Source: an uncultured Ignavibacteria bacterium
GTDB lineage: Bacteria; Bacteroidota; Ignavibacteria; Kapaibacteriales; UBA2268
Direction: 5' to 3'
Length of the DNA stretch: 64,000 nt
Assembly: GCA_903862655.1 (NCBI GenBank)
Contig: CAIOZA010000024.1
Coordinates: 11,716-75,715, forward strand
The position numbers were made by a program, and so were the translations under genes. Below, one piece after another: positions 5,020 to 45,072 of the stretch. Under the pieces are notes generated by a model that did not search any database, was not told the origin of the DNA, and saw only the letters and a program-made list of their open reading frames with translations. Position 1 is the stretch's first letter. Every line of letters begins with the position of its first letter.

Positions 5020-6306
5020 CTATGGCAGCTCCTGAATAATTTTCGGAGTTGCAGGTTTTGGATCGCGTTTGATAACTACAATGGTTCTATCATCTCCATA
5101 TCTCGATTCGGCGGTAAATTTCTGAACCTCTTCAAGAATTGCATAAGCTATATCTTTAGATTCGAGAAGGTGATGTTTTTTCACCATTTCGATTAATCTT
5201 TCTTCTCCATAAACTTCGTTATGTTTATTCATTGCTTCGGTGATACCGTCTGTGTAAAGAACTATAACATCACCCGAATGAATTCTAACATTTTCCAGAC
5301 CGAATTTCTGCTTTCTCATTAAGCCTAATAATCCTCCTGTCGGAAGCAGGAGTGATATTTTATCTTTATTGGGTCTATAGTGTATTGGTGCACAATGGCC
5401 TGCATTCACATAGAATGCAACGCGATTCTGAGAAAGAGCAAGTTCACAATAGAATAGAGTAACAAATCTTTCATAAAGAAAAGTATCGAAAATCAGAGTA
5501 TTCATTTTGCTGAAGATGTCGGCAATTCTATTTGCATAGCTAAGGCCCATGCGAATAGCTCCGGATACAAAGAGAGCCTGAATTGCGGCAGGAAGGCCTT
5601 TGCTGGCGGCATCGCTTATGACGATTCCAATGCTGTCTTCTTCTGCGTCTTCACGTTTAATATAATCAAAATAATCGCCGCCGACTTCGCTATCGGGGAG
5701 GCATACCCCAAAAATATCATAATCATGAAATCGGAGATGATGGTCAGGCAGAAGATTACGCTGAATTTCGGAGGCATTGTTCATCTCGCGTCTGAATTTT
5801 TCACTCTCTTTGCTGGCTTTTAGATTTCTTAAAGTCATAGTAGTAACGCTACTTATGATGTTGAGAAATTCAAAGAAATAATCAGGAATTTCGGGAGCAT
5901 TGAAGCCCATGATATACTTATAATAGCGTCCCGGTTTCATGTTGAATATCTCGCCAACTCCGGTAACTGAATATAGCTTTATTCCCAATTCCTGTAATAA
6001 TATATCTGTTTCATCGCTAAGTACTGTTTTTTTCTTATTAAGTTCGGATAAGACGAGCTGATCGGATACTAAAACTTCATAGTCATCCGGGATCTTATTA
6101 AGAAGACCGTGCTGAAATACAAGTTTGTAGGACAACCTTTCACTGTTAAATTCCCAGATTCTTCCACCTTTGATAGCGAAATGCTCCTGATTGACAATAT
6201 CCGATACAAGTGATTTCAATAATGAGTGTTCATCAGGAAAAGAGCCGGAAATCAGCTTTTCAACCAATTTATAGGTATCTCTCTGTAAAGATGCATTTAA
6301 AGACAT
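5020..6306 (-). CDS. PP2C/SpoIIE-family serine phosphatase with N-terminal sensory (GAF-like) region
   Basis: C-terminal half carries PP2C metal-binding motifs (GGDYFDYI, VISDAASKGLPAA, YVNAGHCAP, VLYTDGITEA) typical of RsbU/SpoIIE phosphatases. Confidence 0.7.
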   Translation of the reverse strand: MSLNASLQRDTYKLVEKLISGSFPDEHSLLKSLVSDIVNQEHFAIKGGRIWEFNSERLSYKLVFQHGLLNKIPDDYEVLVSDQLVLSELNKKKTVLSDETDILLQELGIKLYSVTGVGEIFNMKPGRYYKYIMGFNAPEIPDYFFEFLNIISSVTTMTLRNLKASKESEKFRREMNNASEIQRNLLPDHHLRFHDYDIFGVCLPDSEVGGDYFDYIKREDAEEDSIGIVISDAASKGLPAAIQALFVSGAIRMGLSYANRIADIFSKMNTLIFDTFLYERFVTLFYCELALSQNRVAFYVNAGHCAPIHYRPNKDKISLLLPTGGLLGLMRKQKFGLENVRIHSGDVIVLYTDGITEAMNKHNEVYGEERLIEMVKKHHLLESKDIAYAILEEVQKFTAESRYGDDRTIVVIKRDPKPATPKIIQELP

Positions 6307-6573
6307 ATCTTTTTTGCTTTAATGTTAATAGACAAACGTATAAACTCTTAAATTAAGAAATAATTTTGGATGCATCAAAAATTCAACTTTTTCTGTCACT
6401 CTGATTACGGGGAAGACAATTTTAGTATAAAGTGCGGAAGGGATTAGTGCATAGTTTTATTAATGAAATTTGTAAACTTCTAAGTAGCAGCTAAAGCATT
6501 AATTAAACAAATTACAAAATGAATCTGAAGTTCAGGGTGGGGAAAATAAAAGAGAGGAGCAGAACCTAAAGTC

Positions 6574-6945
6574 CTACTCCTCGATAATAAGATAAGCTAC
6601 TGCGTTGCCTTGTGTGTGGCTAAGAGAAACGTGGGTCTTGTATTTGCCCCATTTCTCGAGCAATCCTCCTTCGAGTACGATTACCGGTTTACCGTTTTCT
6701 TCATTTCGGATTCCGACTTCGCGGAACTTGAACCCATCGGTCAACCCTGTGCCAATAGCCTTGCTGAATGACTCTTTCGTGGCGAAACGAGCCGCATAAT
6801 GCAGATATTTATTATCCTTGAACATTTCGCAGTATTCCTGCTCCAGTTCTGTGAATATTCTGTTCAGGAAACGGTGTTCGTACTTCTCGATTGCGTCTTT
6901 TATTCTTGAAACCTCGATTATGTCAGTACCAATGCCGATTATCAT
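6574..6945 (-). CDS. acpS: holo-[acyl-carrier-protein] synthase (4'-phosphopantetheinyl transferase)
   Basis: 123 aa. N-terminal MIIGIGTDIIEVSRI signature of AcpS. Length and conservation match the AcpS family. Confidence 0.85.
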   Translation of the reverse strand: MIIGIGTDIIEVSRIKDAIEKYEHRFLNRIFTELEQEYCEMFKDNKYLHYAARFATKESFSKAIGTGLTDGFKFREVGIRNEENGKPVIVLEGGLLEKWGKYKTHVSLSHTQGNAVAYLIIEE

Positions 6946-6982
6946 AAACTATCCGCTATTCTACAAATTTAAAAAATTCAAT

Positions 6983-7534
6983 TTACCAGGTATAACCAAT
7001 ATTAATTCCACCATAATCACCGAAATTACGGCTATATGAAGGAATAGTAATCATTAATTTTACAATTGGTTCCAAAAACCAATTTTCAGCAAAAACCCAC
7101 TTGTATGATGCTTCTGCACCAATTGATACTGATATGGTTCCACGTGAATCATATTTATTATTAATCCAGTCCCAGTTGTCATATCCACTATAATAACCTA
7201 ATGCTACTGCGGGTCCAAAACCAAAGCCTTCGATTGGACCATGTTTCTTTTTTTTGTCCCAAAACCAGTTAACTATGTACCATCTGTATGATGCGCCAAC
7301 TCCAAAGTAAGTTTCACTTAATCCAGCCCAGCCCCAGCCCCAGGAAGCATACATTGCAGAAAGAGTCAAACTGTTTGTTTCTGACATTTTAGTCTCATAA
7401 GTTGCACTTACACCCCATAACAATGAGAATGGATCAATCGATATAGCATCATTATAAAGACCTCCAGCTGCTTTCATGCTGGGTGTTAGCAAAAGTGCGA
7501 AGAAAAATGCAATTAATAGTGTGCGTAATTTCAT
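6983..7534 (-). CDS. small outer-membrane beta-barrel protein (putative)
   Basis: ORF track 6983..7567. The internal Met at 7534 gives a clean signal peptide MKLRTLLIAFFFALLLTPSMKA. Gly/aromatic-rich alternating strands, C-terminal aromatic residue. Confidence 0.5.
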   Translation of the reverse strand: MKLRTLLIAFFFALLLTPSMKAAGGLYNDAISIDPFSLLWGVSATYETKMSETNSLTLSAMYASWGWGWAGLSETYFGVGASYRWYIVNWFWDKKKKHGPIEGFGFGPAVALGYYSGYDNWDWINNKYDSRGTISVSIGAEASYKWVFAENWFLEPIVKLMITIPSYSRNFGDYGGINIGYTW

Positions 7535-7761
7535 AAAACCTCCGAGTAATAATGTAAAAAACTGCAATTAGACTGATTAATATTGAACAAATATAATACA
7601 GATTTTCATCAATGCAAAGTAAATTTTATTATAATTTGCGTTTAATCGAATTAATAAAAAAATTTAAAATGTACTGAAAGCAAAAACTTGTTATAATAGA
7701 CAGGAGGTAATCTTTTTTATCAACCGTCAGCTTAGGCATAGGGCTGATAAGCTATCAATCA

Positions 7762-8379
7762 TTACCAGTTCAGAAAATCATAGTTTAGCTTTAGTTTCAA
7801 CCCGCCCGATCTTATCTGCATAAGCGAGAAAGTATATACGTCCGCTTCAAATCCGATTCCGAAACTATCTGAAAAGAAATAGTTATAGCCAATTCCAAGG
7901 TAATATGTGTAGTACCAGTTGTTAACGCTTACCTTCGTTCCTATCGCTTCAATTGCCGATGTAACGTAAGTAGTTCCAAGTCCGCCATAAATTCCGATTC
8001 CATAAAGGTTCATATTTATAATCAGTAGAGCAGGATAGCCTTTCAATGAAGCACGTATATCGGCAGAACCAAATTCAGAATGAGGCTCATTTTTCTGAAT
8101 ATCCATAATGTTTATTCTTGCTGTTTGCAATCCGATATTCAGCCTGTGGTCAGGCTTCCAGAGGATTCTTAATGATGGGGAAAAATTCTGCAATTGTATC
8201 TCAGTAAGGAGAGAATTGAGATCGGTATTATAACCTAATCCAAGTTCTGCAGTAAAACTAAAGGTAGAATCACCAACAGATCTCGGTTTCGAGAAAAGAC
8301 CGGTTGATAAAGCAAGGAATACCAAAATAAGTAAGGTTGTACTAATTGCATTGATTCTGCCAAAAATAGATTTCTTCAT
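7762..8379 (-). CDS. hypothetical secreted/outer-membrane protein
   Basis: ORF track gives 7762..8598, but its first 73 codons read through the MITE-like repeat. The Met at 8379 starts a signal peptide MKKSIFGRINAISTTLLILVFLALS. The C-terminal Y..F..W ending is beta-barrel-like. Confidence 0.45.
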   Translation of the reverse strand: MKKSIFGRINAISTTLLILVFLALSTGLFSKPRSVGDSTFSFTAELGLGYNTDLNSLLTEIQLQNFSPSLRILWKPDHRLNIGLQTARINIMDIQKNEPHSEFGSADIRASLKGYPALLIINMNLYGIGIYGGLGTTYVTSAIEAIGTKVSVNNWYYTYYLGIGYNYFFSDSFGIGFEADVYTFSLMQIRSGGLKLKLNYDFLNW

Positions 8380-10737: not shown

Positions 10738-13700
10738 TTATCTGTATAATATCAGCTTCGCTGTTTGAACATTTGTTCCATTAGATAATCTGACCAAGTA
10801 CACCCCATCATTCAGTTTATTTGATGATTGATCTGTACCATCGAAGTTCACGATTTTATGTCCTGAAATGATTTCATTGTTAATCAGAGTTTTCACTTGA
10901 TTGCCTGTGACATCGTAAATGCCGAGACTAACCAGTGAAACACCATCACCAACGAAACTTATATGTCCAAAATCCACAACAGGATTGGGAGCGATAGACA
11001 GTTCTGAGCTTGAGAATATCGGCTGATTATTGACACTAACCAATGATTGATCAACGGCAAGAATCTCGAAATCATCTACTAACCCTTCCTGAAGTGAATA
11101 GGGAGTCGATTGATTTGAAGAAGAAGGAGCATCAAAAATGAATTTGACTTGTATAGTCTTAGTGTTTTGGTTGATATATTCAACAAGAGAAATGATTTCC
11201 TCTTCCCATTTGTCTGTTGGATCTTTGCGTGATTCAACTGTTGTCCATGTAAGACCGCTATCGACAGAAACTGAAGTTACCCAATATGTTTCAAATCCGG
11301 GATATGGTAATAAATATGAGTTAGTAAACCATCTGTAATATTTAATAACGGGATTAATTAAGTTAGAAACATCGATAAAAGGCGATACTAATGATGTTTT
11401 ACCATTTGGCATATACTGAGAAAATGAGGATGTAGTTCCTTTAGCGCCAGTTACCCAGCAGTTTAACCCAGCTGGTGTATGATTAAGTCCGGGTTGGATA
11501 ATGCCATATCCGAATGGACTCATGTCAATCTTGTTCGGCTTACCATTCTCCCATTTTCCTTTTGTAGCATTGTCACCAAAAGGTGATGTTTGCCAACCAG
11601 CTGATGTTTCGCAGCTATCTAACTTTACTGATAAAAAACCAACAAGAAATTTAAAAGGAGTTAAGGAAGAATTACCTTTACTGAAATTTATATGATTTTT
11701 GGTTATTGGATCATCTACTGACATGTAGTATTTAACTATAGAGCCAGCCTTTTGAGCCGGAACACTAGCTGAGTAAGAGCCATTGCCATTGAAAGTGGCA
11801 TCTACGGAGTTAGTAGTATTAAAATCATCAATTGACCAAAGAATTTTTACATTCTGAGGAGCAAATCCGGCAACGGAGAGAGCATCAATTTTAAAATTTA
11901 AAGTATAGGGCTTAGCTGTTTCTCTGGTATCAGAGAACTGAGTATGCGAGAAAGACATTTTCATCATTAAGTCAGTGCCGATATGATGATTGTTGAATGC
12001 TTTAACTATTTCCAGATAGTGAGGTGTTCCGTTATTTATATTGCCATCATCGTCATCTGCTAGCAAAGTCTCAATAAACCAGTCAGAAAATGCTTTTCCA
12101 ATATCGGGATCATCAGGCAGTCCATATTTTACAAAGTGAGCAAGATGACGAACATAATCAAGATCTGTAGCTTCTCTTAAATCCCAGAAAGCTCCGCCAA
12201 GTATTTGACCATTATAATGTCCATCGCCCTGCAGGCTGTCTGGAAATATGATTTGGTTCTTTAGGGATCTGATGTACTGGTTTGTATCACCGGGCTTGTA
12301 TCCAAAGCCAACTCTGGGATCATCGAGATTCAAACATGAGAACAGGTCCGCAGTTCCTTCGTTACACGAAAGGTTAACCATTCCATTCGATGCTCCTTTC
12401 TCCTTGTAAAGAAGGAGATTAATGCTGTGTCCATATTCATGGAACAGAACCGACGAACACTCAGAAAGGTTAAATGTTGAAGCTCCGACATCTACAAAAC
12501 TAATAGCCGTGCCCTGTGACATTGCATTAGGCCCGGTATTATAGGGATCAGTGAAATCAATATTTAATGTTAAGACAAAGTCCATGAAAGACATTGATGT
12601 ATCAATTTCCTTAGCGTAGTCATGAATAGTATTTGCATGGTAGAACAAGCTACGTTCGAATTTATGAGAATTACTGTCGTTCCATTCAATTACAAGATTC
12701 TGACCGGGGAATAATCGGGTAGTAAGATTCGCCGTTGCTCTTGGACCCTTATTCATTATGACTTTAGTCCATTTGCTTTCGAATGTAGCATTAACATTTG
12801 TAGTATCGGTAATGTCAACTTCAATCTTTCCATCGCTGTCCGTTGAGTATTTTGTTGAGCCAACTGTTATGAATTGATCGGGCAAATTCTTTATTATTGA
12901 TGGTTCACTGCTGTATTTGATCTTAACCGGAGCAGTAGAAGTTATTGAAGATTGTGCACTCATAGTCATATTCTGTCTCCAGAGTATCCGACCATTCATG
13001 GCGTCGATGTAAGCAAAATAGTTAGCTTGTGTAGCTTCTATCATTATTTCCACTCTGTAAACCAACCTATATTCAGTGTTTTGTCCTATGGTATAAGGTA
13101 AAATGTATAATGTATTATCTACTTTGGATTCATCAGTTGCGACGCTATAATCTAATCCTGTGCTCGCAAGATTTGCAGCTTCTTCGGCTGTGATCGTTGG
13201 ATTTGTAACATTCATTTCAGGAATAGGATAATACTGAGCACTAAATGACCCAAGATTTCCATTGTGGTGAATCTTTAATTCAATTTTTGAAAGAACTACT
13301 TCTAGTCCTTTGTATAGCTGTTTGAATCCGATGTCGAATTTACTATCATGATCCGAAAAGTTTGACAATTCTAGATTCTTTGTATCAACTCCAAACAGAT
13401 TAAAATTTTCAGATAAAAATTTCTTCCCTACTTGAAGTACAGTCTCCTTCTCAAGATTTGGCAAATTGAGGGGAATAGCCTCACCGAAAGCACGGTGAAT
13501 TAATCCTGTAGACTTATCAAAGATAATACTCCACGAACCATACATACCGGTAAAGGCTTTCCATTCAGGAGTTATATCCGGATTCGCAACTAATTTTAAT
13601 TTAATCAGCTCAGGATTGGCTTGAGCAGGCAATTGAATATTTCCATTACCATAAACCAGATTATTATCTGGATTATTAGAAATGGCAGATTGTGCTAATA

Positions 13701-13785
13701 TCGTTGCTGTGCAAAGGATAGAAGCCAGAATAACATTTATGTACTTCATATATTTAACTGAAATATTTATAAATTCCATTTTCAT
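10738..13785 (-). CDS. secreted thermolysin-like (M4/M36-type gluzincin) zinc metalloprotease with T9SS C-terminal sorting domain
   Basis: 1015 aa with a signal peptide. HEYGH (HExxH) is followed 23 aa later by NEGTAD, the Glu third zinc ligand of gluzincins. The C-terminal ~80 aa (…GVYLVRLSNGTNVQTAKLILYR) match the T9SS CTD pattern seen in the four cargo proteins at 55-64 kb. Confidence 0.7.
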   Translation of the reverse strand: MKMEFINISVKYMKYINVILASILCTATILAQSAISNNPDNNLVYGNGNIQLPAQANPELIKLKLVANPDITPEWKAFTGMYGSWSIIFDKSTGLIHRAFGEAIPLNLPNLEKETVLQVGKKFLSENFNLFGVDTKNLELSNFSDHDSKFDIGFKQLYKGLEVVLSKIELKIHHNGNLGSFSAQYYPIPEMNVTNPTITAEEAANLASTGLDYSVATDESKVDNTLYILPYTIGQNTEYRLVYRVEIMIEATQANYFAYIDAMNGRILWRQNMTMSAQSSITSTAPVKIKYSSEPSIIKNLPDQFITVGSTKYSTDSDGKIEVDITDTTNVNATFESKWTKVIMNKGPRATANLTTRLFPGQNLVIEWNDSNSHKFERSLFYHANTIHDYAKEIDTSMSFMDFVLTLNIDFTDPYNTGPNAMSQGTAISFVDVGASTFNLSECSSVLFHEYGHSINLLLYKEKGASNGMVNLSCNEGTADLFSCLNLDDPRVGFGYKPGDTNQYIRSLKNQIIFPDSLQGDGHYNGQILGGAFWDLREATDLDYVRHLAHFVKYGLPDDPDIGKAFSDWFIETLLADDDDGNINNGTPHYLEIVKAFNNHHIGTDLMMKMSFSHTQFSDTRETAKPYTLNFKIDALSVAGFAPQNVKILWSIDDFNTTNSVDATFNGNGSYSASVPAQKAGSIVKYYMSVDDPITKNHINFSKGNSSLTPFKFLVGFLSVKLDSCETSAGWQTSPFGDNATKGKWENGKPNKIDMSPFGYGIIQPGLNHTPAGLNCWVTGAKGTTSSFSQYMPNGKTSLVSPFIDVSNLINPVIKYYRWFTNSYLLPYPGFETYWVTSVSVDSGLTWTTVESRKDPTDKWEEEIISLVEYINQNTKTIQVKFIFDAPSSSNQSTPYSLQEGLVDDFEILAVDQSLVSVNNQPIFSSSELSIAPNPVVDFGHISFVGDGVSLVSLGIYDVTGNQVKTLINNEIISGHKIVNFDGTDQSSNKLNDGVYLVRLSNGTNVQTAKLILYR

Positions 13786-13853: not shown

Positions 13854-14306
13854 TTAGTTCTCATAAAGAATTTCTGTGTCATAGATTGTTTCGAGCTGCA
13901 GTTTGTGTTTAGCCTCTTCGTCAGCGAGTTTTAGAAGAATTAATTTAATTCTTTGGTCATCAGTTTCTTCTGATAAGGATGTATACATTTTCCATGCATT
14001 TTCTTCGCGCTTGATAGCCGTAATTAGGATTTCCTGAATGGTCAGGTGTGCAGATTCAGCAGGAGTGTGCAGAGTTTCTGATATTCCCAGATTTCTGATG
14101 TCTTGTTTCTGATAGGATTCAAGAGTGGCACTATCAATATTCTGAAGGATCTTCATGTGACCCCATTCCATATTCTCAAGTTCTTTTAATATCACTTTAG
14201 ATGCATCAACCTTAATAATATTCTGAAGATTTCTATAATAATTTGCGGCATCAATTTCCGCTTGAATTGCTTTTTCGATTACTTGTTTAAAATCTGATTC
14301 TGTCAT
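13854..14306 (-). CDS. rubrerythrin-like/ferritin-like diiron domain protein
   Basis: 150 aa. Two E-x(28-33)-E-x-x-H half-sites (ELENMEWGHM and LADEEAKHK) as in the rubrerythrin/ferritin-like four-helix bundle. Confidence 0.55.
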   Translation of the reverse strand: MTESDFKQVIEKAIQAEIDAANYYRNLQNIIKVDASKVILKELENMEWGHMKILQNIDSATLESYQKQDIRNLGISETLHTPAESAHLTIQEILITAIKREENAWKMYTSLSEETDDQRIKLILLKLADEEAKHKLQLETIYDTEILYEN

Positions 14307-14503: not shown

Positions 14504-15016
14504 CTATGCCTTTATAACCGGAGGAGTGAACACTCTGGTTTTTAATTCATTATCGAGCATAATAATGCCGGCAGTAAAATCGCCTATAAGCTTGATCTTC
14601 TCGACTATTTCGTTCACTGTTTCTTCTTCTTCCACTTGCTCGGTAATGAACCATTGGAGGAGGATATTTGTAGCATGATCGCTTTCTTTGATAGCAAGAT
14701 CAGTTAATTTATTAATGCTCTCGGTTATGGATTGTTCGTGCTTGTAAGCAGCCTGGAATGCTGCGAGCGGGGAATCCCATTTTGACTCTGGAGCTGCCAG
14801 AGCTGAAATTTTAGGAGATCCGCCTCTTGCCAATAAATAATCAAAAAACCTCATTGAATGGAATGTTTCTTCCTGAACCTGAATGCGCATCCAGTTTGCA
14901 AATCCTGCAAGATTTACTGACTGGAAATATGCTGACATTGAGAGGTAGAGATTAGCTGAGAACATCTCTTTTGATATTTGCTCATTGATTGCATCGGCTA
15001 TTGTCGTCTTAATCAT
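14504..15016 (-). CDS. ftn: non-heme ferritin
   Basis: ORF track 14504..15058. From the internal Met, MIKTTIADAINEQISKEMFSANLYLSMSAYF aligns with the bacterial FtnA N-terminus (…LNEQ.N.E…S.LYL.MS). Ferroxidase Glu/His residues conserved (EETFHSMRF, YKHEQ, DHAT…QWFITEQ.EEE). Confidence 0.8.
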   Translation of the reverse strand: MIKTTIADAINEQISKEMFSANLYLSMSAYFQSVNLAGFANWMRIQVQEETFHSMRFFDYLLARGGSPKISALAAPESKWDSPLAAFQAAYKHEQSITESINKLTDLAIKESDHATNILLQWFITEQVEEEETVNEIVEKIKLIGDFTAGIIMLDNELKTRVFTPPVIKA

Positions 15017-15084
15017 ATTAAATCCTTTTTCTAAAATTGTGTAATAATTTTTATTCAATAAACGTAAAATGTTAATTCCTATTC

Positions 15085-16527
15085 TTAAATCATACGATAA
15101 ATTTTTGGTAGTGAAACTTCAAATAATGTTCCGGGTCTTCCTTCCTCTTGAAGGGGAGACGGAGAAGTCAAGGAAATTGTCCCATGATATTTAATAATAA
15201 CCTCGCGAACAAAGGACAGACCGAGTCCTGAACCTTCAATCCCTTTTTCTCTGGACAAAGAAGTTCTGAAAAAATTAGTGAATATTTTATCTTTATCTTT
15301 ATCGGGAATTCCTATCCCATTGTCAGACACAGAAATTAGTACATCATCCTTCTCTTCAACTAAGTCAATCCGGATTTGTCCACTCTGCTCTGTATATTTG
15401 ATGGAATTTGAGACAAGATTTGCCAGAGATAGTTTTAATAACTTGGGTTCTGCCTGAACAGAGATTTCATCCTTTTCCTCATGATTGAATATTAGATTCT
15501 GCTCCTTGGAGCTGATGAGCACACTAGTATCATTAATGATTTCATCAAATAATTCAATCAAATTTACATTGCTTATATCTTCAACGTTAGATTCAATCTT
15601 CAGCTGTGAAATATAGAGGATATCGTTAATTGTAGAAATAGCATTAGTTAATCTTACTTTTGATCTCTCCAATGGCTGTTGTATCTTTGCCTCTATTTCG
15701 CCAATAGTTCCATTAAGTATCATATTCAGGTAGGTCGTAGCTGCTGCTATTGGAGTTTTAAGATCATGAACAACGGTCATAACGTACCTTGATTTAGTTT
15801 TTTCTGCTATTTCGAGTTCAGCATAAGCCAGAGTAAGCTTGTATTCCCGAATATAAAGTTCCTGGGCTATCGAGTTAGCCAGATAGGTTGCAAGGTAAAG
15901 CCCAATGCCGAAAATAGTATAGAAAAACAGAAGATAACCAGTATTGGTATGTAACTCCAATTGTATCACATTGAATGAATAATGATAAATCAAGCCTTTC
16001 ATTTCAAGATAAGATCCGGTAATTGTTATCGCAAGAGTTACAGTATTGATTAGATTTACAACTGCTCCCGGCAGAATCAAACTCCCGATGATGACATGAA
16101 AAAGAAAAAAAGCATACAATGGGGTTTCTACTCCGCCAGTAAAATATATAAAGGCTAATAATGAAGCGTAATCGCAGAGAATCTGAATAAGAGAAAAGTG
16201 CAGGTCGTGGAATTTATGCACCTGCTCATAGTCTGATCGTTTAGGATATTTTTGCTTCTCGCGTTCAAGATACTTACTTACAAAAAGGAAGAAAATGTTA
16301 TAGCCAAGTATTGATGCGGCAACTATCCAGATTGGACCCGGGTTGAGCTGAAGTGATTTAAAGGAACTTTCAATCAGATTGATTCCGTATATAAGAAAAA
16401 GTAGAAGAGCCACAGCTCCGTACCGCAATTTGATTAACCACATATTGCGTCTGCCGATCCGGAACCAAAATTGGTCGTGCTGTATTCTGTCAGGAACCAG
16501 ATTAAATATCGACAACATAAAAGACAT
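15085..16527 (-). CDS. membrane-bound sensor histidine kinase
   Basis: Multiple N-terminal TM helices. HisKA H-box VVHDLKTPIAAA. HATPase_c N/G boxes (LVSNSIKYT, SDNGIGIP, GSGLGLSFV). Confidence 0.8.
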   Translation of the reverse strand: MSFMLSIFNLVPDRIQHDQFWFRIGRRNMWLIKLRYGAVALLLFLIYGINLIESSFKSLQLNPGPIWIVAASILGYNIFFLFVSKYLEREKQKYPKRSDYEQVHKFHDLHFSLIQILCDYASLLAFIYFTGGVETPLYAFFLFHVIIGSLILPGAVVNLINTVTLAITITGSYLEMKGLIYHYSFNVIQLELHTNTGYLLFFYTIFGIGLYLATYLANSIAQELYIREYKLTLAYAELEIAEKTKSRYVMTVVHDLKTPIAAATTYLNMILNGTIGEIEAKIQQPLERSKVRLTNAISTINDILYISQLKIESNVEDISNVNLIELFDEIINDTSVLISSKEQNLIFNHEEKDEISVQAEPKLLKLSLANLVSNSIKYTEQSGQIRIDLVEEKDDVLISVSDNGIGIPDKDKDKIFTNFFRTSLSREKGIEGSGLGLSFVREVIIKYHGTISLTSPSPLQEEGRPGTLFEVSLPKIYRMI

Positions 16528-16831: not shown

Positions 16832-19114
16832 TTACTTCATGTGAGAGCCGATCGTAGACAGAAATACCTCCCGGTCTAACGGTTTTGGGATAAAACCGGA
16901 GCAACCAGCTTCATAACAGATTGTTTTATTCTCTTCGAATGCAAAAGCAGTCTGAGCAATTATTATAGCTTTAGGATTAATTTCAAGCAGCTTTTTTGCA
17001 ACAGAATATCCGTTTAAGTCCGGTAACTGAATATCTAAGAGTAAGATATCTATACCTGGATTATTTTTGTAAATTTCAATTGCACTGCTACCGTTGTAGG
17101 CAACTAGATACTTAGCTTTGGTACTTTCTAAGTATTTAAGTATCAATTTTACATTGAATTCATCATCTTCAATCAAAAGAATTGTTTTACCAGACCAATC
17201 ATAAAGTGACCTGTTAGATTGGGTATTAGGAATTTTATGTGGCATAATAGGATAATATGGAATTGTGAAATAAACTGTCGTGCCTTTACCGGCAACTGAT
17301 TTAACCCAGATATTGCCGTTCATCAGCTCTACCAGACCTTTGGCGATAGCAAGTCCAAGTCCAGACCCACCAAATCTTCTACTTAGTGTTTCATCATTAC
17401 CTTGTCGGAAACGTTCGAAAATAATTTCCATTTTTTCGGCTTCTATGCCTATTCCTGTATCGGAAACATAAAATTGAAGTTTATCATCCGGAATGTCTTC
17501 AACTCCAAATTCGACTTTACCGGAATCGGTAAATTTTACAGCATTTGAAATCAGATTGTTCAATATCTGTCTGAGTCTGGTTTGATCGGCTAAGATTGTA
17601 AACTTTTCATTCAGAGTTTTTCCGATAATAAATTCGAATTTTTGTTTATTAACAACAGCATCTGTGATGGCGTAAGTGGAATAAATTTCGTAAAGAAGTT
17701 TATTGATGTCCAGTTCAGTTTGCTTGAGAATTAGCTGATTTGCCTCGATTTTTGAAATTTCAAGTATATCGTTGATAATATTAATCAAATCATTACTGCC
17801 TTTAGTGATGAATTGAATATACTCATGCCTTTCTTCCCCAGTCAAATCATCAGAATCCAATAGTTGGGCAAATCCAATTATGCCATTCATTGGTGTACGG
17901 ATTTCGTGGGACATATTTGCAAGGAATGCTGACTTCAGCCGGTCGGACTCTTCGGCTTTCTCTTTTGCTTTAAGCAGTTCATTTTCTAGTTTTTTACGTT
18001 CACTGATGTCGCGTGTAATTGATAAGATATGTTGAGCATTATTGATCATAATCATTCTGGCAGACATTAATCCTGTTATGATTTGACCATTTTTGAGTTT
18101 AAAAGAGGCTTCCAGATTTTCAATATATCCATTCTCTATTAATAATTTCACAAAAAATTCTCTTTCCTGAGGATTTACCCACAGATCAATATCTAAAGAT
18201 GACTTGCCAATCACATCTTCACGAGTGAATCCCGTTAGTCTGCAAAATCCTTCATTAATATCGACAAAAACACCATCGAGATCATTTATGTTAATCGAAT
18301 CGGGGCTAATGTAAAAGGTAGACTTATATCGTTCTTCACTCTCGGCTACCTTTGCGTTAGCAGAGATTCTGTTTGTAATTTCTTTGCTGATTAGTTTGTA
18401 TGAATAGAAAAGGAAAGAAACAAATACTAACCAGATTGCAAGATGAGATACAGCATTAACTCTTGAATTAAATCCTGCTATTTTATAATACTTTTCCATA
18501 GGTATTGAGCAGCTCATACCTCCGCGAACATCTCCTTCCTTATATCCCTGGGAAGCATGGCATTTCAAGCATTTTTTCTCGGTCGTGAAAGAATGAATAT
18601 ACCTAAGATATTCTTTGCCATTAATTTGTTCGATTGAAGAATACTCGTTTGTTTTACCTGCTTCGAATATTCTAAGAGCAGATGATTCCCATTGATCCGC
18701 TTTGTTCTGCGGTCTAATAGGTTTCAAACTAGTAATATGGCTCTTTATGCCATATTGAGAATCACCAAGAGAATATACTTGTCTTGTCATGTAGGCAGGA
18801 TTCATCAGAGTCAGCTTAACGCCTGATGGAGTTTCGATATCACGCTCTTTGATGTTCTCTAAATATTCATTTGGTGGTGTTTCGGGAGTAACCGGCACGT
18901 AGATACCTCCATGCATAGTTGCCCATCTTCTGTATACAATGTCTTTCTGGTAATTACTTACGGCTTCGATTTTAGCATTTTCTCTTGCAACACGGTATTC
19001 AGCAATAGTTCTCATTATATATGAGAATGAAAATATCAGAGTGCACACAACGAAAACAATAAGAAATAAAATACCTGTTAACTTAATTTCTTTTGGATTA
19101 TTCTTAAAAGCCAT
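16832..19114 (-). CDS. hybrid sensor histidine kinase/response regulator with periplasmic heme-c (CxxCH, Tll0287/DUF3365-like) sensor domain and PAS domain
   Basis: TM1, then a ~180-aa periplasmic domain containing CLKCH (nt 18557..18571), then TM2, a PAS domain, HisKA (MSHEIRTPMNGIIGF), HATPase_c, and a C-terminal receiver (ILLIEDDEFN…LLLDIQLPDLNG). Confidence 0.8.
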   Translation of the reverse strand: MAFKNNPKEIKLTGILFLIVFVVCTLIFSFSYIMRTIAEYRVARENAKIEAVSNYQKDIVYRRWATMHGGIYVPVTPETPPNEYLENIKERDIETPSGVKLTLMNPAYMTRQVYSLGDSQYGIKSHITSLKPIRPQNKADQWESSALRIFEAGKTNEYSSIEQINGKEYLRYIHSFTTEKKCLKCHASQGYKEGDVRGGMSCSIPMEKYYKIAGFNSRVNAVSHLAIWLVFVSFLFYSYKLISKEITNRISANAKVAESEERYKSTFYISPDSININDLDGVFVDINEGFCRLTGFTREDVIGKSSLDIDLWVNPQEREFFVKLLIENGYIENLEASFKLKNGQIITGLMSARMIMINNAQHILSITRDISERKKLENELLKAKEKAEESDRLKSAFLANMSHEIRTPMNGIIGFAQLLDSDDLTGEERHEYIQFITKGSNDLINIINDILEISKIEANQLILKQTELDINKLLYEIYSTYAITDAVVNKQKFEFIIGKTLNEKFTILADQTRLRQILNNLISNAVKFTDSGKVEFGVEDIPDDKLQFYVSDTGIGIEAEKMEIIFERFRQGNDETLSRRFGGSGLGLAIAKGLVELMNGNIWVKSVAGKGTTVYFTIPYYPIMPHKIPNTQSNRSLYDWSGKTILLIEDDEFNVKLILKYLESTKAKYLVAYNGSSAIEIYKNNPGIDILLLDIQLPDLNGYSVAKKLLEINPKAIIIAQTAFAFEENKTICYEAGCSGFIPKPLDREVFLSTIGSHMK

Positions 19115-28551: not shown

Positions 28552-29499
28552 ATGCCAACATCAATTTCTAACGGTGGACGAATTCGCACCAACACGCCAG
28601 CTGAAAATGCATACAATGCATTATTCAACGCTTCACAACAAATAGCCACAAAACAGCTAAGATTATCAACAGGCAAGCGCATTAATACAGCTGCTGATGA
28701 TGTCGCGGGCTATGTAACAGCAAGATCCCTTTCTTCACGTAACGGTGCTTTAAATACAGCTTTAAAAGCAGCTGGTGAAGCTACCAACATCACAAGTGTT
28801 GTACAGGATGCTTATGACAACATCGCTGGTCTGTTAACTCAGATTAAAGATGCTGCAGCACAGGCATCATCGGGCGCACTTGGAACAGATGAAAAAGTTG
28901 CTTTGGCTAAAGCAGCATTCAGACTAGGCGAGCAAATTCAGCTTGTAGCTGATTCGACAGTTTTCGGTGGTAAGCAGCTAATAGGTGGTGCATACACAGG
29001 ATCATGGGTCGTAGGTTATACTCAGAGTAACTCATTACTTACGCTAGACATTAACTTAGCCACAACAAATACAACACAATTCAACGTAACAAACGCTGGT
29101 GGTTTTGACATTAATGCAACTACCGGAAGTGGCGTAGCTAACTTTGCAGGTGTTTCCGGCTTAAACCTAAAAGCTCTAGATTCAGTTTCTGATTCTAGTT
29201 TAGGTATCTTCTCTACAGATAATATTAGTGCAACACTAACCAGTTTGGCCACAGCTTTGAATAATGTTAACAAGGTTGCTGCTTATGTCGGTGGAATTCA
29301 GGCAAGAATTGGTTCACAGGAAGACTTGCTCAGATCACAGATCACAAACTATAACGCTGCTATTTCCAGAATTCAGGATGCTGACGTAGCACAGGAACAG
29401 ATGGATTTAGTTCGGGCACAATTTTTGCAGCAAGCATCTTTAGTATCTTTAGCACAGGCTAATCAGAATCCATCAGCATTTTTACAATTACTTAGATAA
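28552..29499 (+). CDS. fliC: flagellin
   Basis: 315 aa. N-terminal D0/D1 (LRLSTGKRINTAADDVAGYVTARSL) and C-terminal (IQDADVAQEQMDLVRAQFLQQASLVSLAQANQNPSAFLQLLR) flagellin signatures. Confidence 0.85.
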   Translation: MPTSISNGGRIRTNTPAENAYNALFNASQQIATKQLRLSTGKRINTAADDVAGYVTARSLSSRNGALNTALKAAGEATNITSVVQDAYDNIAGLLTQIKDAAAQASSGALGTDEKVALAKAAFRLGEQIQLVADSTVFGGKQLIGGAYTGSWVVGYTQSNSLLTLDINLATTNTTQFNVTNAGGFDINATTGSGVANFAGVSGLNLKALDSVSDSSLGIFSTDNISATLTSLATALNNVNKVAAYVGGIQARIGSQEDLLRSQITNYNAAISRIQDADVAQEQMDLVRAQFLQQASLVSLAQANQNPSAFLQLLR

Positions 29500-29518
29500 A
29501 AATGATGCTGGTTTTAAT

Positions 29519-29546
29519 AACTGATTAGTTTTTTGAAAAATCAGTT
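29519..29546 (+). terminator. stem-loop downstream of fliC (weak terminator/attenuator)
   Basis: AACTGATT-agttttttgaaa-AATCAGTT, an 8-bp perfect stem. No strong T-run follows. Confidence 0.25.
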
Positions 29547-29620
29547 TGATAGAAGGAAGGCGGGGAACAATAATTTCCCTGCCATTTCTTCGTTAGAACA
29601 AAGAATTTGAAAGGAAGAAT

Positions 29621-29980
29621 ATGTCTTCAATTGCTGCGAAGCAAATTGCTGCAGGTAGGGCATACGGTGGAAATAAAGAAGGATTGATACCGGCTTATTT
29701 TGAACAGGAAGTTCTCTTGTGGAGCAAGGAAAAACTCATTCTTAAAATGTATGACCTTTTTCTTGTAAGCAATAAGAAAAAAGATTTCGTTAAAATGAAT
29801 AGAGTACTGATTGAATTAATGAGTGCGCTAAATTTCGATTACGAAGAGCAGGCTACAAGACTTTACAGATTGTATGAATTTTGCCAGAGATGTATCTTTC
29901 AGAAAAAATATGATAATGCTGAATACATTATCAGGGAACTTCGGGATTCTTGGGCACAGGCTTTTAAAATTGAAGGTTAA
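29621..29980 (+). CDS. fliS: flagellar export chaperone FliS
   Basis: 119 aa. Helical protein with the FliS-like pattern (…LILKMYDLFLVS…VLIELMSALNFDYEEQATRLYRLYEFC…IIRELRDSWAQAF). Lies between fliC and fliD. Confidence 0.55.
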   Translation: MSSIAAKQIAAGRAYGGNKEGLIPAYFEQEVLLWSKEKLILKMYDLFLVSNKKKDFVKMNRVLIELMSALNFDYEEQATRLYRLYEFCQRCIFQKKYDNAEYIIRELRDSWAQAFKIEG

Positions 29981-30004
29981 TTATTAATTTATTATTGATA
30001 TAAA

Positions 30005-31441
30005 ATGGCATCAGATTTATTTGGATCGTTTCTATCGACAGCAACTGGCACAGCGGCTTCTACGTCCTCGAGTCAGGCACTTGTTGATGCTTTCAAACTG
30101 AGCAAGAAACCTGCGGTTGATACGTTGACCACAAGGAAATCTACTCTAGAAAGTAATCGGTCATTTTATACAGGATTAAAAAGCAGAATTGATTCTTTAG
30201 TGTCACAAATAGACAAATTTTCTGCATCAACTGCTCAAACCAAATTCAAAGCTAAGAGTGTAACTTCATCCAATACAGCAATAGCAACTGTTACTGCAGA
30301 TGGTACAGCTACAATCGGAATTAATACACTTAAAATCAACCAGTTAGCAAATAATGACATACTTGTTGGTAAGCAATTAGCAATTGGTAGTTCAGATCTG
30401 TTTAGTCCAACTGGTACAGACATGACTTTCAAAGTAAACAGTAAAGATGTAAAAGTTACTATTGCAGCCGGTGCAACAAATGAGCAGGCTATGCAAGCTA
30501 TTGCCAAAGCTATTAACGGAGTTACCGACATAAATGTTACTGCGTCGTATATTAAAGATACTTCATCAACTGGTAGATTAACAATAACGTCTTCTAATAC
30601 CGGATCTGACAATAAAATTACCTTTAATGATAATTCGAGCGGAGTTCTGAATGCTCTTGGATTTAATAATGTTGATTCAAGTGCCACCGACAGAACTCAG
30701 GCTGTATCCGGCAATACCCAGGCGTATTATAAATCTTCAGCTGTCGATAATTTGAATGCTAAAGCTGAAATCAATGGTATCCAAATCACGCGTGGAACAA
30801 ATTCCATTAGTGATGTTATAGCAGGAGTAACCTTAAATCTGTTAAAACCTCAGGATGTAGCTGAACAGTCACTGACATTAACAACGGGTATTGATACAAC
30901 AGCAGTAACCAGTTTGATTAATCCAATTCTTACAGCTTACAATGATGCATTGAAATACGTTAAGAGTAATACTAATTTGTCCAGAAATGATCCGGCAATA
31001 AACTCACTATATAGCTCGCTTCGTTCTTTGTCATCTCAGGAAATAACTTCTGTTACTTCCGGAGATCCAAAGTTTTTAGCAGAAGTAGGCATAAAGGCAG
31101 CTTCTGATGGAACATTGTCGATTTCAGACAGCACAAAGCTAACTGATCTGCTCAAAGATGATCCTAATAAAGTAGCTAATCTGTTTACAGGTAGTGACGG
31201 TTTTGCACAAAAAATTAATGGGATGGTAAGCAGGCTTACCGGCGACACAGGCATAATCAAATCTAAGACAACAGCTCTGAATTCTCAGATTGATTATACA
31301 GGTAAAAGAATTGATAAGCTTAACGCCTCAATCGAAACGCAAGCTCAGGCTTACAGAAAACAATATGAATCAATGCTTTCGTCTTATATGAAGGCACAGA
31401 GTCAGTATACAAGTTTAGGAGCGTATACAACAACAGCTTAA
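30005..31441 (+). CDS. fliD: flagellar filament cap protein FliD
   Basis: 478 aa. Ser/Thr/Ala/Asn-rich with conserved N- and C-terminal helical regions (…NTLKINQLANND… and …QAQAYRKQYESMLSSYMKAQSQYTSL). Adjacent to fliC/fliS. Confidence 0.7.
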   Translation: MASDLFGSFLSTATGTAASTSSSQALVDAFKLSKKPAVDTLTTRKSTLESNRSFYTGLKSRIDSLVSQIDKFSASTAQTKFKAKSVTSSNTAIATVTADGTATIGINTLKINQLANNDILVGKQLAIGSSDLFSPTGTDMTFKVNSKDVKVTIAAGATNEQAMQAIAKAINGVTDINVTASYIKDTSSTGRLTITSSNTGSDNKITFNDNSSGVLNALGFNNVDSSATDRTQAVSGNTQAYYKSSAVDNLNAKAEINGIQITRGTNSISDVIAGVTLNLLKPQDVAEQSLTLTTGIDTTAVTSLINPILTAYNDALKYVKSNTNLSRNDPAINSLYSSLRSLSSQEITSVTSGDPKFLAEVGIKAASDGTLSISDSTKLTDLLKDDPNKVANLFTGSDGFAQKINGMVSRLTGDTGIIKSKTTALNSQIDYTGKRIDKLNASIETQAQAYRKQYESMLSSYMKAQSQYTSLGAYTTTA

Positions 31442-31540
31442 AACTAAATTTGTAGGATTATGATTATTAGGAATTCAGGAAGAAATTAAATCAGGAGACT
31501 AGGAAGTTCTTTTCAACATAGTTGAAACAAGGAGGGTGCC

Positions 31541-31960
31541 ATGGTGAATCCAATGCAGGGTATTTCTACTCTCGTTACGGCATCTGTAGAAAATATTAAA
31601 TTTAAGGATAAAGTACAGAAAGAAGAAAATAAGCCGAATATCACGACTAAAGTTCTTACGAATACCGCTGATAAGTATTCCGGGCCTGGAGCCGAAAGCA
31701 CAAAAAATGATTCGGTTTTAGCCGACGCTAAAGTCGTTGATTATTCGGAATTATCTAAGAAACTTCAGGAGATAATAGGTGCTCCTAATACTTATTTTGA
31801 ATTCTCTCTTGATGCTGACACAAAAAAGCTGGTTATCAAAGTGATAAATGCGGATACGAAAGAAGTAGTCCAACAATATCCGCCTGAAGTAGCATTAAAA
31901 ATAGCTAAAATTGTCTCTCAGAGGCTTGAGGCTGGTCAGTTAACAAATGCAGTTGTATGA
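31541..31960 (+). CDS. flaG: flagellar protein FlaG
   Basis: 139 aa. C-terminal YFEFSLDADTKKLVIKVINADTKEVVQQYPPEVALKIAKIV matches the FlaG family core (…v.vid..T.evIRqiP.E..l…). Confidence 0.6.
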   Translation: MVNPMQGISTLVTASVENIKFKDKVQKEENKPNITTKVLTNTADKYSGPGAESTKNDSVLADAKVVDYSELSKKLQEIIGAPNTYFEFSLDADTKKLVIKVINADTKEVVQQYPPEVALKIAKIVSQRLEAGQLTNAVV

Positions 31961-35628: not shown

Positions 35629-36543
35629 TCAGTTAATGGCAAACTTCAGAAAACCATAAAGAGAATTCATATCGTCTTTGCTCAGCTTCATAACAGATGG
35701 TTTGAAACCACTCTTAAGTGTATTTGTGGAGACAAGTTGAACAAAAACGTTATATTCACTTCTCCATGCACTTGTTTTGAATAGTGTTGCAATTACTTTT
35801 CTCTGATCAGCTGTTACTTTTCTGAAAAGAATGGCCTGCTCTGTCTGATTATCTGCAATTCTTGTTATAATCGAATTAATTGCTTCGTTTAATACCTTAT
35901 TATCGGCAACAAGATTCTTCTCAGCTTTTAGAACTGGAATCTGTGAAGAAGTTCTTCTGGGTGAAGCAAGATCGTAAATATCGTCAATCTGCTTCAGCTC
36001 AGGAACAGTAATCTCGGGGAAACCACCGATCATATTGCGAATGTAGTGAATCACTCCGAATCTGTCTTCAATTGGCAGGAATTCGTAAGCTATCATACCA
36101 GATCCCGGAATGCCTTCTGTCAGAGTCTTGAACATACCACCAATATTTCTTCCGTTTTTCCAGCCTTCTGTCAGAGTGAAATTCCTTGGTTTGGGCATAA
36201 GATTAGCACCACCTGGACCATCTCCACCACCTTTTTCTCCATGGCAGGATGAGCAGGTATTTTTGAATACTTCAGCACCACGAGCCAGCAATTGCTGATT
36301 CGAATAGCCAACATCCATAACATTTACACCTGGCATAGGCTTGCCCTTAACCATGTCGATCGGAACTTCCTTTGTTGTATCTTGTGTTATGACTTGTTTT
36401 ACTTCATCCGGACTCATTTTCTTAATGTCCGGAATCATATTTACATAAGCCATGCTGACGCCTAACCAGATTACACCCGCAATCACAAGAAGCACAGCAA
36501 TGAGACTTAATTTATGTTTTTTCTTTGGAGTATTTTCTTCCAT
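35629..36543 (-). CDS. membrane-anchored monoheme class I cytochrome c with C-terminal extension
   Basis: N-terminal TM helix. CSSCHGEKGGGDGP heme-binding site, Met ligand region (IPGSGMIAY). Last gene of the actABCDEF operon, so plausibly the electron carrier to the cbb3 oxidase. Confidence 0.65.
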   Translation of the reverse strand: MEENTPKKKHKLSLIAVLLVIAGVIWLGVSMAYVNMIPDIKKMSPDEVKQVITQDTTKEVPIDMVKGKPMPGVNVMDVGYSNQQLLARGAEVFKNTCSSCHGEKGGGDGPGGANLMPKPRNFTLTEGWKNGRNIGGMFKTLTEGIPGSGMIAYEFLPIEDRFGVIHYIRNMIGGFPEITVPELKQIDDIYDLASPRRTSSQIPVLKAEKNLVADNKVLNEAINSIITRIADNQTEQAILFRKVTADQRKVIATLFKTSAWRSEYNVFVQLVSTNTLKSGFKPSVMKLSKDDMNSLYGFLKFAIN

Positions 36544-36571
36544 TATTTTACCTTTAAAGCAAATTCAATAA

Positions 36572-37804
36572 TTAAAGATGAAAATCCATAGCTCTTTTTA
36601 GCTTTGGATCGCCAATCGGAATAAGATTTCGCTTAGTATAAGAATATTTAAATAAAATCATTACCAAACCCAGCCCTAAAAGAGGAAATCCTAACTCTGT
36701 CCAGCTGAATACGGCACCTGATTTACTGAATGTTGGCATGATCAACCAATATAGATCAAAGAACTGTGCGAAAATTATCCACCAACCTACATACTTAAGA
36801 CGATTGATATTGCTTTTTGATGGCTGAGAAAGTAATCCGGCATAAGGAATAATAAATTTAATAAAGATTATCCCAATCGAAATATACAGCCAGCTGCCTT
36901 GAGTTCTGGATAAGAACCAGAAAGTTTCTTCCGGAAGGTTAGCATACCAGATAAGCATAAACTGACTGAATGCGATATAAGCCCAGAAATTGATAAATGC
37001 AAAAAGAAATGCACCCAGATTGTAAAAATGATCCTTTGTGATCCACGATGGCAATGCTCCAAAGCTTTTAAGTTTAATCGCTATCAATGTAATCGCTGCA
37101 AATGCTGTCAAAAGCGATCCTGCAAAATAGTAAACACCAAAAATGGTAGAGAACCAAAGCGGCTCTAAACTCATAATCCAGTCGATACCAATAAGAGTTA
37201 TTCCGAGACCGAAGATTGGCATTAATCCTGCTGATAATCTAATATTCTTCTTTGTAAGATTCTGATCGGAATTGTTGTCCTGCTTGGCTGAGTTTCTGAT
37301 AATAACGATGGAAAACAAACCAACCAGCACTATAATCGCAGTAATTCTGATATAGAAGAACTGAGGATTAAGGAATGCTGTCTTAGCCATAACCGTTTTG
37401 TGTAAAGTCAAGTATTCCGGGTTTGCCCATTGAAACACATGCGAGAAGTTGAAGAAAACAGGAATTGCAAATATTGGTGCAATGAATACTAATGGCACAA
37501 GGTATTCTGCAATTCTTCTGAATGGTACACTCCAAACAGCACCTGTCAGATATTCAAGTCCTATCAGGAACAATGAGCACATTCCCATTCCAATCAGGAA
37601 TACAAAAACGATTAAACTATCGAATGATGCCCTGACCGGGTCTGCAACAAGAGCAAGAATAGAAAGAATCAAACCCAATGCTGCAAAACCTAGCCCATAA
37701 GTTCCGAATTTCGGAGGTAGGGGCTTCTTTACGTAATCATGATTATTTTGATTCATTGAAATCTTCCTCCTTGGGATTAAATGCTCTCTGTAGTGATCGT
37801 ACAT
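36572..37804 (-). CDS. actF: alternative complex III subunit ActF (NrfD-like membrane subunit)
   Basis: 410 aa polytopic membrane protein, paralogous in architecture to ActC. Position after actDE. Start may be the Met at 37756. Confidence 0.65.
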   Translation of the reverse strand: MYDHYREHLIPRRKISMNQNNHDYVKKPLPPKFGTYGLGFAALGLILSILALVADPVRASFDSLIVFVFLIGMGMCSLFLIGLEYLTGAVWSVPFRRIAEYLVPLVFIAPIFAIPVFFNFSHVFQWANPEYLTLHKTVMAKTAFLNPQFFYIRITAIIVLVGLFSIVIIRNSAKQDNNSDQNLTKKNIRLSAGLMPIFGLGITLIGIDWIMSLEPLWFSTIFGVYYFAGSLLTAFAAITLIAIKLKSFGALPSWITKDHFYNLGAFLFAFINFWAYIAFSQFMLIWYANLPEETFWFLSRTQGSWLYISIGIIFIKFIIPYAGLLSQPSKSNINRLKYVGWWIIFAQFFDLYWLIMPTFSKSGAVFSWTELGFPLLGLGLVMILFKYSYTKRNLIPIGDPKLKRAMDFHL

Positions 37805-43200: not shown

Positions 43201-43348
43201 ACATCTTATCGGTATTAAATTCTTCAGTCACTCGTTCTGGGAACTCAAGCATCGAAGAATTATGATCTTCATGCTCATGTACATGAGGGTGAATGTGATC
43301 TTCGGATTTTAGAGTGTTCATATCATCAATATTGTTCATTTGATTCAA
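40232..43348 (-). CDS. actB: alternative complex III subunit ActB (molybdopterin-oxidoreductase-like + 4Fe-4S ferredoxin-like domains, Tat signal)
   Basis: 1038 aa. His-rich N-terminal extension, then twin-arginine motif [21 protein letters not shown]-terminal Cys clusters ([11 protein letters not shown]…, [26 protein letters not shown]) of the ferredoxin-like B2 domain. Confidence 0.85.
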
Positions 43349-43536: not shown

Positions 43537-43547
43537 TGTATCTCCCT

Positions 43548-45062: not shown

Positions 45063-45072
45063 ATCTTTTCAA

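Follow-up and report, generated by a model that had tools for sequence, protein, structure and literature searches.

The DUF3365/Tll0287 domain has been reclassified as sCache_heme, which is a Cache domain and not a PAS domain (Deshpande, Xing, Gumerov, Crane and Zhulin; bioRxiv 10.64898/2026.02.01.703092). The sCache_heme domain corresponds to PF11845 in Pfam and to IPR021796 in InterPro. In 2026, these domains were reported to be the first of the Cache type to carry a covalent cofactor. In this work, we describe a hybrid histidine kinase gene with such a sensor that was identified in a stretch of 64,000 nucleotides (nt) from an uncultured Ignavibacteria bacterium (GenBank assembly GCA_903862655.1, contig CAIOZA010000024.1, positions 11,716 to 75,715). 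The whole of this stretch is referred to as the window. The gene is complete, is located at 16832..19114 (stop codon included) on the minus strand, and encodes a protein of 760 amino acids (aa). The gene belongs to the already described sCache_heme family and is an ordinary member of it. The encoded protein is probably a membrane-bound hybrid histidine kinase with a periplasmic sCache_heme input, in which a heme-c sensor of nitric oxide (NO) or of redox state drives a His-Asp phosphorelay.

The CXXCH motif of sCache_heme is 99% conserved over 5,000-20,000 sequences, and histidine kinases are among the common fusion partners of the domain (bioRxiv 10.64898/2026.02.01.703092). The family comprises a stand-alone redox group (Cluster 1) and a signalling-fused group (Cluster 2). 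The heme of the stand-alone Tll0287 and of a Pseudomonas putida protein is ligated by His and Cys, and the stand-alone member is redox-like (bioRxiv 10.64898/2026.02.01.703092). The P. azotoformans member is fused to transmembrane (TM) helices and a HAMP domain and does not have the axial Cys. This member binds NO tightly (koff ~6e-4 s-1), is quick to autoxidise, and gives no stable complex with O2 (bioRxiv 10.64898/2026.02.01.703092). None of the characterised sCache_heme proteins yields a stable oxy complex, and they autoxidise with the release of superoxide (bioRxiv 10.64898/2026.02.01.703092). The binding of NO to the P. azotoformans receptor alters phosphorylation on the cytoplasmic side, and oxidation or reduction alone shifted the output of this CHH receptor less than NO did (bioRxiv 10.64898/2026.05.25.727664). 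Two Geobacter sensors, GSU0582 and GSU0935, bind NO and CO, acquire Met60 as the distal ligand on reduction, and have been proposed to be redox sensors (PMC8396549). Another Geobacter protein, the DUF3365 kinase GSU0356, carries the heme motif, and its induction by Co(II) and Fe(II) stress has been reported (PMC7726332).

Sensor domain and architecture of the hybrid kinase

The sensor domain of the 760-aa kinase was recognised by the PF11845 profile (Tll0287-like, formerly DUF3365) with an E-value of 1.7e-19 and 71.1 bits, where the gathering score is 24.1. The match covers aa 86-205, which correspond to profile positions 32-144 of 144. The heme-c attachment motif CLKCH was read directly from the sequence at aa 182-186 (18557..18571). 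The window open reading frames (ORFs) of at least 100 aa contain ten CxxCH motifs, all of which are located either in the kinase sensor or in cytochromes c that are recognised by Pfam. Of the nine remaining motifs, ActA contains five, and ActE, a cytochrome c, CcoO, and CcoP contain a single motif each. Given this distribution and the PF11845 match, CLKCH is not a chance occurrence. The nine c-type cytochrome motifs elsewhere in the window also indicate that the organism matures heme-c proteins.

The transmembrane segments were predicted by a Kyte-Doolittle scan using 19-residue windows and a cut-off of 1.6, and only two strongly hydrophobic segments were identified in the whole kinase. TM1 covers approximately aa 13-34 (19013..19078), where the windows above the cut-off are centred on aa 16-29. 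TM2 covers approximately aa 221-243 (18386..18454), where those windows are centred on aa 227-234. The N-terminus before TM1 is Lys-rich (MAFKNNPKEIK). Based on the two hydrophobic helices and the Lys-rich N-terminus, the loop of ~185 aa that they enclose (~aa 35-220, 18455..19012), which holds the sCache_heme sensor, is predicted to be periplasmic. This topology prediction would place the sensor at the extracytoplasmic site that is needed for heme-c attachment. The preliminary description of this locus had reported a 760-aa hybrid kinase with CLKCH between TM1 and TM2, and both the gene and the motif are as it described them. The sensor range that it gave, 18470..19012 (aa 35-215), lies inside the predicted periplasmic loop.

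The structure of aa 1-246 was modelled by AlphaFold2 with 121 homologs (predicted local distance difference test score, pLDDT, 94.9; predicted template modelling score, pTM, 0.86). The model exhibits a continuous N-terminal helix (aa 7-68), a beta-sheet with intervening helices, and a helix at TM2 (aa 207-245). CLKCH sits in a short helix (aa 180-189) that is followed by the last beta-strand (aa 196-205). Fold searches returned Tll0287 as the top match, so the sensor has a single-Cache fold that resembles Tll0287. GSU0935 (3b42) and GSU0582 (3b47) also rank with the best structural matches; both are significant and align at the CxxCH. Ligand-binding sCache domains are the next best fold matches. 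A single-sequence search of the PDB returned only a weak match to GSU0935, also at the CxxCH, and a profile of the N-terminal half of the sensor matched nothing relevant. A database search with a Tll0287 fragment for full-length Tll0287 relatives gave no matches. The assignment to the Tll0287/DUF3365 heme-c family that had been made earlier from composition is therefore borne out by the PF11845 profile, which had been put forward as the check, and by the fold searches; its description as PAS-like gives way to Cache.

The motif is conserved in all of the sensor homologs that were checked. A search with aa 1-246 matched 1,033 proteins, and the best 120 were aligned with the query. All of these 120 carry PF11845, and their identity in the alignment is 41-53%. 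Invariant positions in all 121 aligned sequences are Cys182, Cys185, and His186, as well as Arg62, Trp64, Tyr72, Gly98, Thr102, Pro106, Tyr108, Ser129, Glu143, Leu147, and Gly198/199. The full-length search returned many proteins of 646-932 aa with the PF11845-(PAS)-HisKA-HATPase-REC architecture. The named ones are mostly from metagenome-assembled genomes of Bacteroidota, with the cultured Labilibaculum filiforme among them. The nearest of all these proteins is 66% identical over 769 aa. The sensor-bearing full-length homologs keep the CxxCH without exception (71/71). A phmmer search with the periplasmic domain against 1.84 billion cluster representatives (50% identity) found 5,303 relatives, 3,229 of them at E<=1e-30, and the motif is kept in 132 of the 132 newly returned representatives. 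Loss of the CxxCH in orthologs, which had been named beforehand as the observation that would count against a heme-c sensor, was thus not seen in any of the three sets. No close relative was matched in the species-representative genomes.

The sensor subclade is tightly conserved (42-71% identity) and spans Bacteroidota, Desulfobacterota, Nitrospirota, Planctomycetota, Chloroflexota, and KSB1. The subclade is marked by the motifs YRRW..HGG(V/I)YVP, NPAYMTRQ, GHITSLKP, and CLKCH..QGY..GD(I/V)RGG. Two other arrangements of the same sensor were observed. Of the 120 best sensor homologs, 47 (P0033, encoded at 6001-6993 of context L007, and 46 others) are proteins of ~330 aa with a TM-sCache_heme-TM-coiled coil layout. 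These proteins end in a Cys-rich tail, GLLPICSHCKQIRDDKGYWNQIESYIGAHSEAKFSHGICPDCAKK, that has no Pfam match and resembles an output or zinc-binding module of an uncharacterised kind, attached to the same type of sensor. In context L005, a 251-aa homolog (P0002, 6001-6756) consists of TM-sensor-TM alone, and a separate gene for a soluble HisKA-HATPase-REC protein (6857-7987) lies 100 nt downstream. This gene pair is a split counterpart of the fused hybrid kinase in the window.

The cytoplasmic part of the kinase begins with a PAS domain at aa 262-372 (17999..18331), which was identified by PAS_9 (E=7.4e-11), PAS (E=1.8e-7), and PAS_8 (from aa 262). The Pfam scan of the kinase found no HAMP domain between TM2 and this PAS domain. 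A LOV/flavin type was rejected by eye for the PAS domain because the NCRFLQ-type motif is missing around Cys291. The HisKA dimerisation and phosphoacceptor domain follows at aa 394-458 (17741..17935; E=1.8e-19), where the H-box SHEIRTP contains the phosphoacceptor His403 (17906..17908). The HATPase_c catalytic domain is located at aa 510-620 (17255..17587; E=3.4e-30), with the N-box at aa 520, the G1 box DTGIGI at aa 552, and the G2 box GGSGLGL at aa 582. The C-terminal receiver is located at aa 645-754 (16853..17182; Response_reg E=8.2e-19) and contains Asp650/Asp651, the phosphoacceptor Asp694 (17033..17035), Thr722, and Lys744. All of these features lie on the minus strand. The kinase-core and receiver domains all exceed the Pfam thresholds. 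The H-box, the N, G1, and G2 boxes, and the receiver Asp, Thr, and Lys are intact, and the predicted catalytic residues of both kinase and receiver are therefore complete. NCBIfam gave only sub-threshold matches to the generic hybrid kinases TorS, LuxQ, ArcB, and BarA, which are confined to the kinase core. An identical protein is present in ENA/NCBI assemblies, where PF11845 and the remaining domains are already precomputed.

Axial ligation and the probable signal

The periplasmic domain contains only three cysteines, C182, C185, and C202. The homologs have Val, Leu, or Ile at the position of Cys202, and only the two motif cysteines are present in 110 of the 121 sequences. No conserved Cys was found upstream of the CxxCH in the 121-sequence alignment. 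Since no third Cys is conserved, the sensor is not of the His/Cys-ligated type, and since the axial Cys of the stand-alone redox members is missing, its distal site is expected to be labile. Three other residues that may reach the heme iron are highly conserved among the close sensor homologs, which are Met109 in NPAYMTRQ (120/121), His126 in GHITS (119/121), and His68 in HGG (111/121). Among the more distant hybrid-kinase homologs, Ile, Val, Leu, or Ala is found in place of Met109, and some also differ at His126 and His68. As each of the three is replaced in some distant homologs, no protein-derived sixth ligand is universal. A mapping of Tll0287 Cys68 to approximately aa 107-109 by simple offset was not relied on, Met109 being unconserved in the distant kinase homologs.

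The following mechanism is proposed. The TM1-TM2 loop would be exported, the cytochrome-c maturation system would link heme to Cys182 and Cys185, and His186 would serve as the proximal iron ligand. The distal site would be labile and occupied by water or by a weakly bound side chain, for which Met109, His126, and His68 are the candidates. By analogy with the characterised signalling-fused member, a diatomic ligand, most probably NO, would bind the ferrous heme and change its coordination. This change, whether NO-bound or redox-driven, would travel via TM2 and the cytoplasmic PAS domain and reach the kinase core, which would modulate the autophosphorylation of His403 and the transfer to Asp694 of the fused receiver. 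The phosphoryl group would then be handed on to an Hpt protein and to a response regulator, both of which may be encoded elsewhere in the genome. The analysis establishes the family, the fold, the predicted topology, the conservation of the motif, the lack of an axial Cys, and the integrity of the catalytic residues of kinase and receiver, whereas heme incorporation, the signal, the sign of kinase regulation, and the partners further downstream are inferred. As for the signal, our analysis favours NO over any other single candidate at slightly less than an even chance, followed by redox state as a clearly weaker candidate and by all other signals together, which are a little weaker again. Of the redox, O2, and NO sensing that had been suggested earlier for this kinase, NO and redox thus stay plausible, and O2 is the least likely given that the characterised members form no stable oxy complex.

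Several observations weigh against this proposal. The assignment of NO depends on a single characterised signalling member, whose output is HAMP alone and which was compared with the kinase by description. No biochemically characterised histidine-kinase member is present in the sCache_heme literature, and the binding of heme and ligand is predicted here. Genes for NO metabolism or denitrification are absent beside the gene and beside the six homologs for which genomic contexts were fetched. A Pfam scan of the window ORFs (most ORFs of at least 100 aa and two shorter ones) revealed neither an Hpt nor an output response regulator; the 760-aa protein itself also contains no Hpt domain by Pfam. 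The subclade is only remotely similar to Tll0287, where the 121-homolog profile matched 5b82 with an E-value of 0.12 and in the C-terminal half only (Tll0287 residues 85-147 and 165-182). Lastly, the conserved Met109, His126, or His68 could provide a firm sixth ligand, which would point to a redox-type sensor.

The strongest of the alternatives, although we consider it doubtful, is a periplasmic redox-potential sensor in which the iron's redox state switches the spin state and the distal ligand (e.g., Met109) as in GSU0582 and GSU0935. Such a kinase might read out the periplasmic redox poise or that of the respiratory chain, and the presence of alternative complex III (ACIII) and a cbb3 oxidase implies a microaerobic respiratory chain to monitor. 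The two Geobacter proteins, in which a distal Met60 binds on reduction and which were proposed to be redox sensors (PMC8396549), are among the best structural matches to the sensor, a weak match to PF21563 was obtained, and the conservation of Met109 and His126 in the close homologs is consistent with a similar ligand switch. However, neither of these residues nor His68 is kept throughout the broader hybrid-kinase homologs. The match to PF21563 (Mcp40H-20_sensor), the family of the Geobacter sensors, is confined to aa 140-190 and reaches only 19.9 bits against a cutoff of 27. The redox state by itself also affected the output of the CHH receptor less than NO, and the Geobacter sensors themselves bind NO and CO, so that the gas and redox readings are not exclusive.

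A related alternative, which we regard as unlikely, is that the subclade forms a distinct heme-c sensor with fixed His/Met or His/His coordination that senses something other than NO. If this is the case, the signal might be, for example, periplasmic redox poise, Fe(II), or sulfide, and the sensor of this subclade would feed many outputs, namely kinases, GGDEF domains, and the uncharacterised Cys-rich C-terminal tail.

Genomic neighbourhood

The preliminary description had also drawn support from the neighbouring ferritin genes and from the ACIII/cbb3 locus, and this support proved to be weak. Downstream of the heme-c kinase lies a gene (15085-16527, minus strand) for a 480-aa histidine kinase whose N-terminus is multi-TM and in which no sensor domain was recognised. 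This gene ends 27 nt upstream of the ferritin ORF (14504-15058, minus strand), which is followed by a rubrerythrin-like gene (13854-14306, minus strand). The immediate neighbour of ferritin is therefore the 480-aa multi-TM kinase and not the heme-c kinase. The respiratory genes are located 17-31 kb away, with the ACIII genes at 35629-44120 and the genes for the cbb3 oxidase and its assembly at 44358-49901. The six homolog contexts share nothing with the window or with one another except for a cytidylate-kinase-like gene, and contain unrelated or other signalling genes. Ferritin and respiratory genes are absent from five of these contexts. The sixth, which belongs to the closest ortholog, is a contig of only 3.2 kb that ends ~480 nt downstream of the gene and is too short to show whether ferritin follows. 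As these neighbours are not conserved in the homolog contexts, they provide no evidence for the function of the kinase.

These observations bear on two further alternatives. It is improbable that the kinase senses iron or heme homeostasis and regulates the ferritin and rubrerythrin-like genes, with heme c reporting periplasmic Fe(II) or oxidative stress and the kinase acting on iron storage. Both genes lie 1.8-3 kb downstream on the same strand, and the induction of GSU0356 under Co(II) and Fe(II) stress (PMC7726332) fits such a role, but the evidence from GSU0356 is transcriptional only. The separate 480-aa kinase gene and a 305-nt gap lie between the heme-c kinase and ferritin, and the five contexts in which ferritin is not adjacent include that of the cultured L. 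filiforme.

An O2 sensor is more improbable still. In that case, the ferrous heme c would bind O2 reversibly in a FixL-like manner, matching cbb3 expression to oxygen tension. FixL-type heme-PAS kinases are an established precedent for O2 sensing, and a high-affinity cbb3 oxidase and ACIII are encoded in the window. Nevertheless, the autoxidation and superoxide release of the characterised sCache_heme proteins argue against reversible O2 binding, and the distant respiratory genes are not linked to the kinase in the homolog contexts. The least credible alternative is that the CxxCH is a relic without attached heme in an ordinary Cache sensor of small molecules, as the Cache-like fold, the ligand-binding sCache domains among the fold matches, and the predicted status of heme attachment would allow, since the invariance of the motif in several hundred homologs at 42-71% identity indicates strong selection and all experimentally tested members (Tll0287, GSU0582, GSU0935, and the P. 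putida and P. azotoformans proteins) bind heme c.

A cytidylate-kinase-like gene (PF13189; 19254-19979, minus strand) is located 139 nt upstream of the heme-c kinase. The closest ortholog keeps this upstream gene (2-340 of context L010) at 67% identity, the ortholog itself being 66% identical. This shared neighbour is most simply explained by close relatedness and synteny; alternatively, the gene may be co-transcribed with the heme-c kinase. A scan for promoters and terminators around the gene gave counts equal to the shuffled expectation and was uninformative on operon structure. Two more kinases and a V4R protein are also encoded upstream. The gene for the V4R-domain protein (21300-21821, minus strand) is followed after a 4-nt gap by a gene for a 401-aa histidine kinase (20090-21295, minus strand) that has no recognised input domain. 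This arrangement suggests that the two genes together make up one sensor, with the V4R protein as its input component. An overlapping gene pair (23137-23527, minus strand) encodes a BrnT toxin of 61 aa and a CopG/BrnA-like antitoxin of 75 aa.

In the respiratory locus, CcoN (COX1) and CcoO (FixO) of the cbb3 oxidase are fused in one 717-aa ORF (47748-49901, minus strand). This ORF is followed by CcoP, a CcoG-like ferredoxin, FixH, and a DsbD_2 protein, and is adjoined by the ACIII operon with the five-heme ActA. A P-type metal ATPase is also encoded in the window, which has a GC content of 37.5%. A flagellar filament cluster (flagellin, FliS, FliD, and FlaG) is located at 28552-31960 on the plus strand. 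Type 9 secretion C-terminal sorting domains were identified on several proteins (10738-13785, minus strand; 55189-63163, plus strand). The co-occurrence of flagellar genes with these sorting domains points to a flagellated bacterium of the Bacteroidota/Ignavibacteriota lineage.

Comparison with known systems

The gene marks a probable periplasmic NO or redox input in an uncultured, flagellated, microaerobic bacterium with a type 9 secretion system. The practical value is modest as the gene adds one more example of sCache_heme and opens no new question. At 760 aa, the compact kinase would be reasonably suited to studying the transmembrane control of a kinase by a heme-c Cache domain.

The kinase is most similar to the sCache_heme proteins of Cluster 2. 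As in those proteins, PF11845 is matched above the threshold, the sensor is periplasmic between two TM helices, and an output module is fused to it. The CXXCH is also located in a short helix before the last beta-strand of the Cache fold, and there is no axial Cys. In the P. azotoformans CHH receptor, the only biochemically characterised member of Cluster 2, the output is HAMP alone and signalling proceeds via a partner kinase of the Ser/Thr type, whereas the kinase in the window has no HAMP domain and carries a PAS-HisKA-HATPase-REC output, as far as the two can be compared by description and not by sequence.

Tll0287 from Thermosynechococcus elongatus (PDB 5B82) is soluble and stand-alone, with His/Cys68 ligation and an insertion of ~17 residues after the CxxCH. 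The kinase in the window, in contrast, is membrane-anchored and kinase-fused, has no equivalent Cys, and has a short loop after the motif. No sequence similarity to Tll0287 is detectable in the N-terminal half of the sensor. By these sequence features, the kinase falls outside the Tll0287-type stand-alone Cluster 1.

GSU0582 and GSU0935 (PDB 3B47 and 3B42; PF21563) are similar in that a periplasmic heme-c sensor is located between the two TM helices of a signalling protein. Both differ in their shorter sensors (~130 aa), the methyl-accepting chemotaxis protein (MCP) output, the distal Met60, and the swapped dimers. The PF21563 match of the kinase is sub-threshold and Pfam found no MCPsignal domain in it, which places it outside the Geobacter-type heme-c MCP sensors.

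FixL (heme-PAS) and DosS/DosT (heme-GAF) are cytoplasmic, bind heme b non-covalently, and include true O2 sensors. These kinases and the kinase in the window are alike in that a change of ligand or redox state at the heme iron controls, or in the latter case would control, the autophosphorylation of a histidine kinase. The kinase in the window differs from them in its predicted covalent heme c, its periplasmic sensor, and its Cache scaffold.

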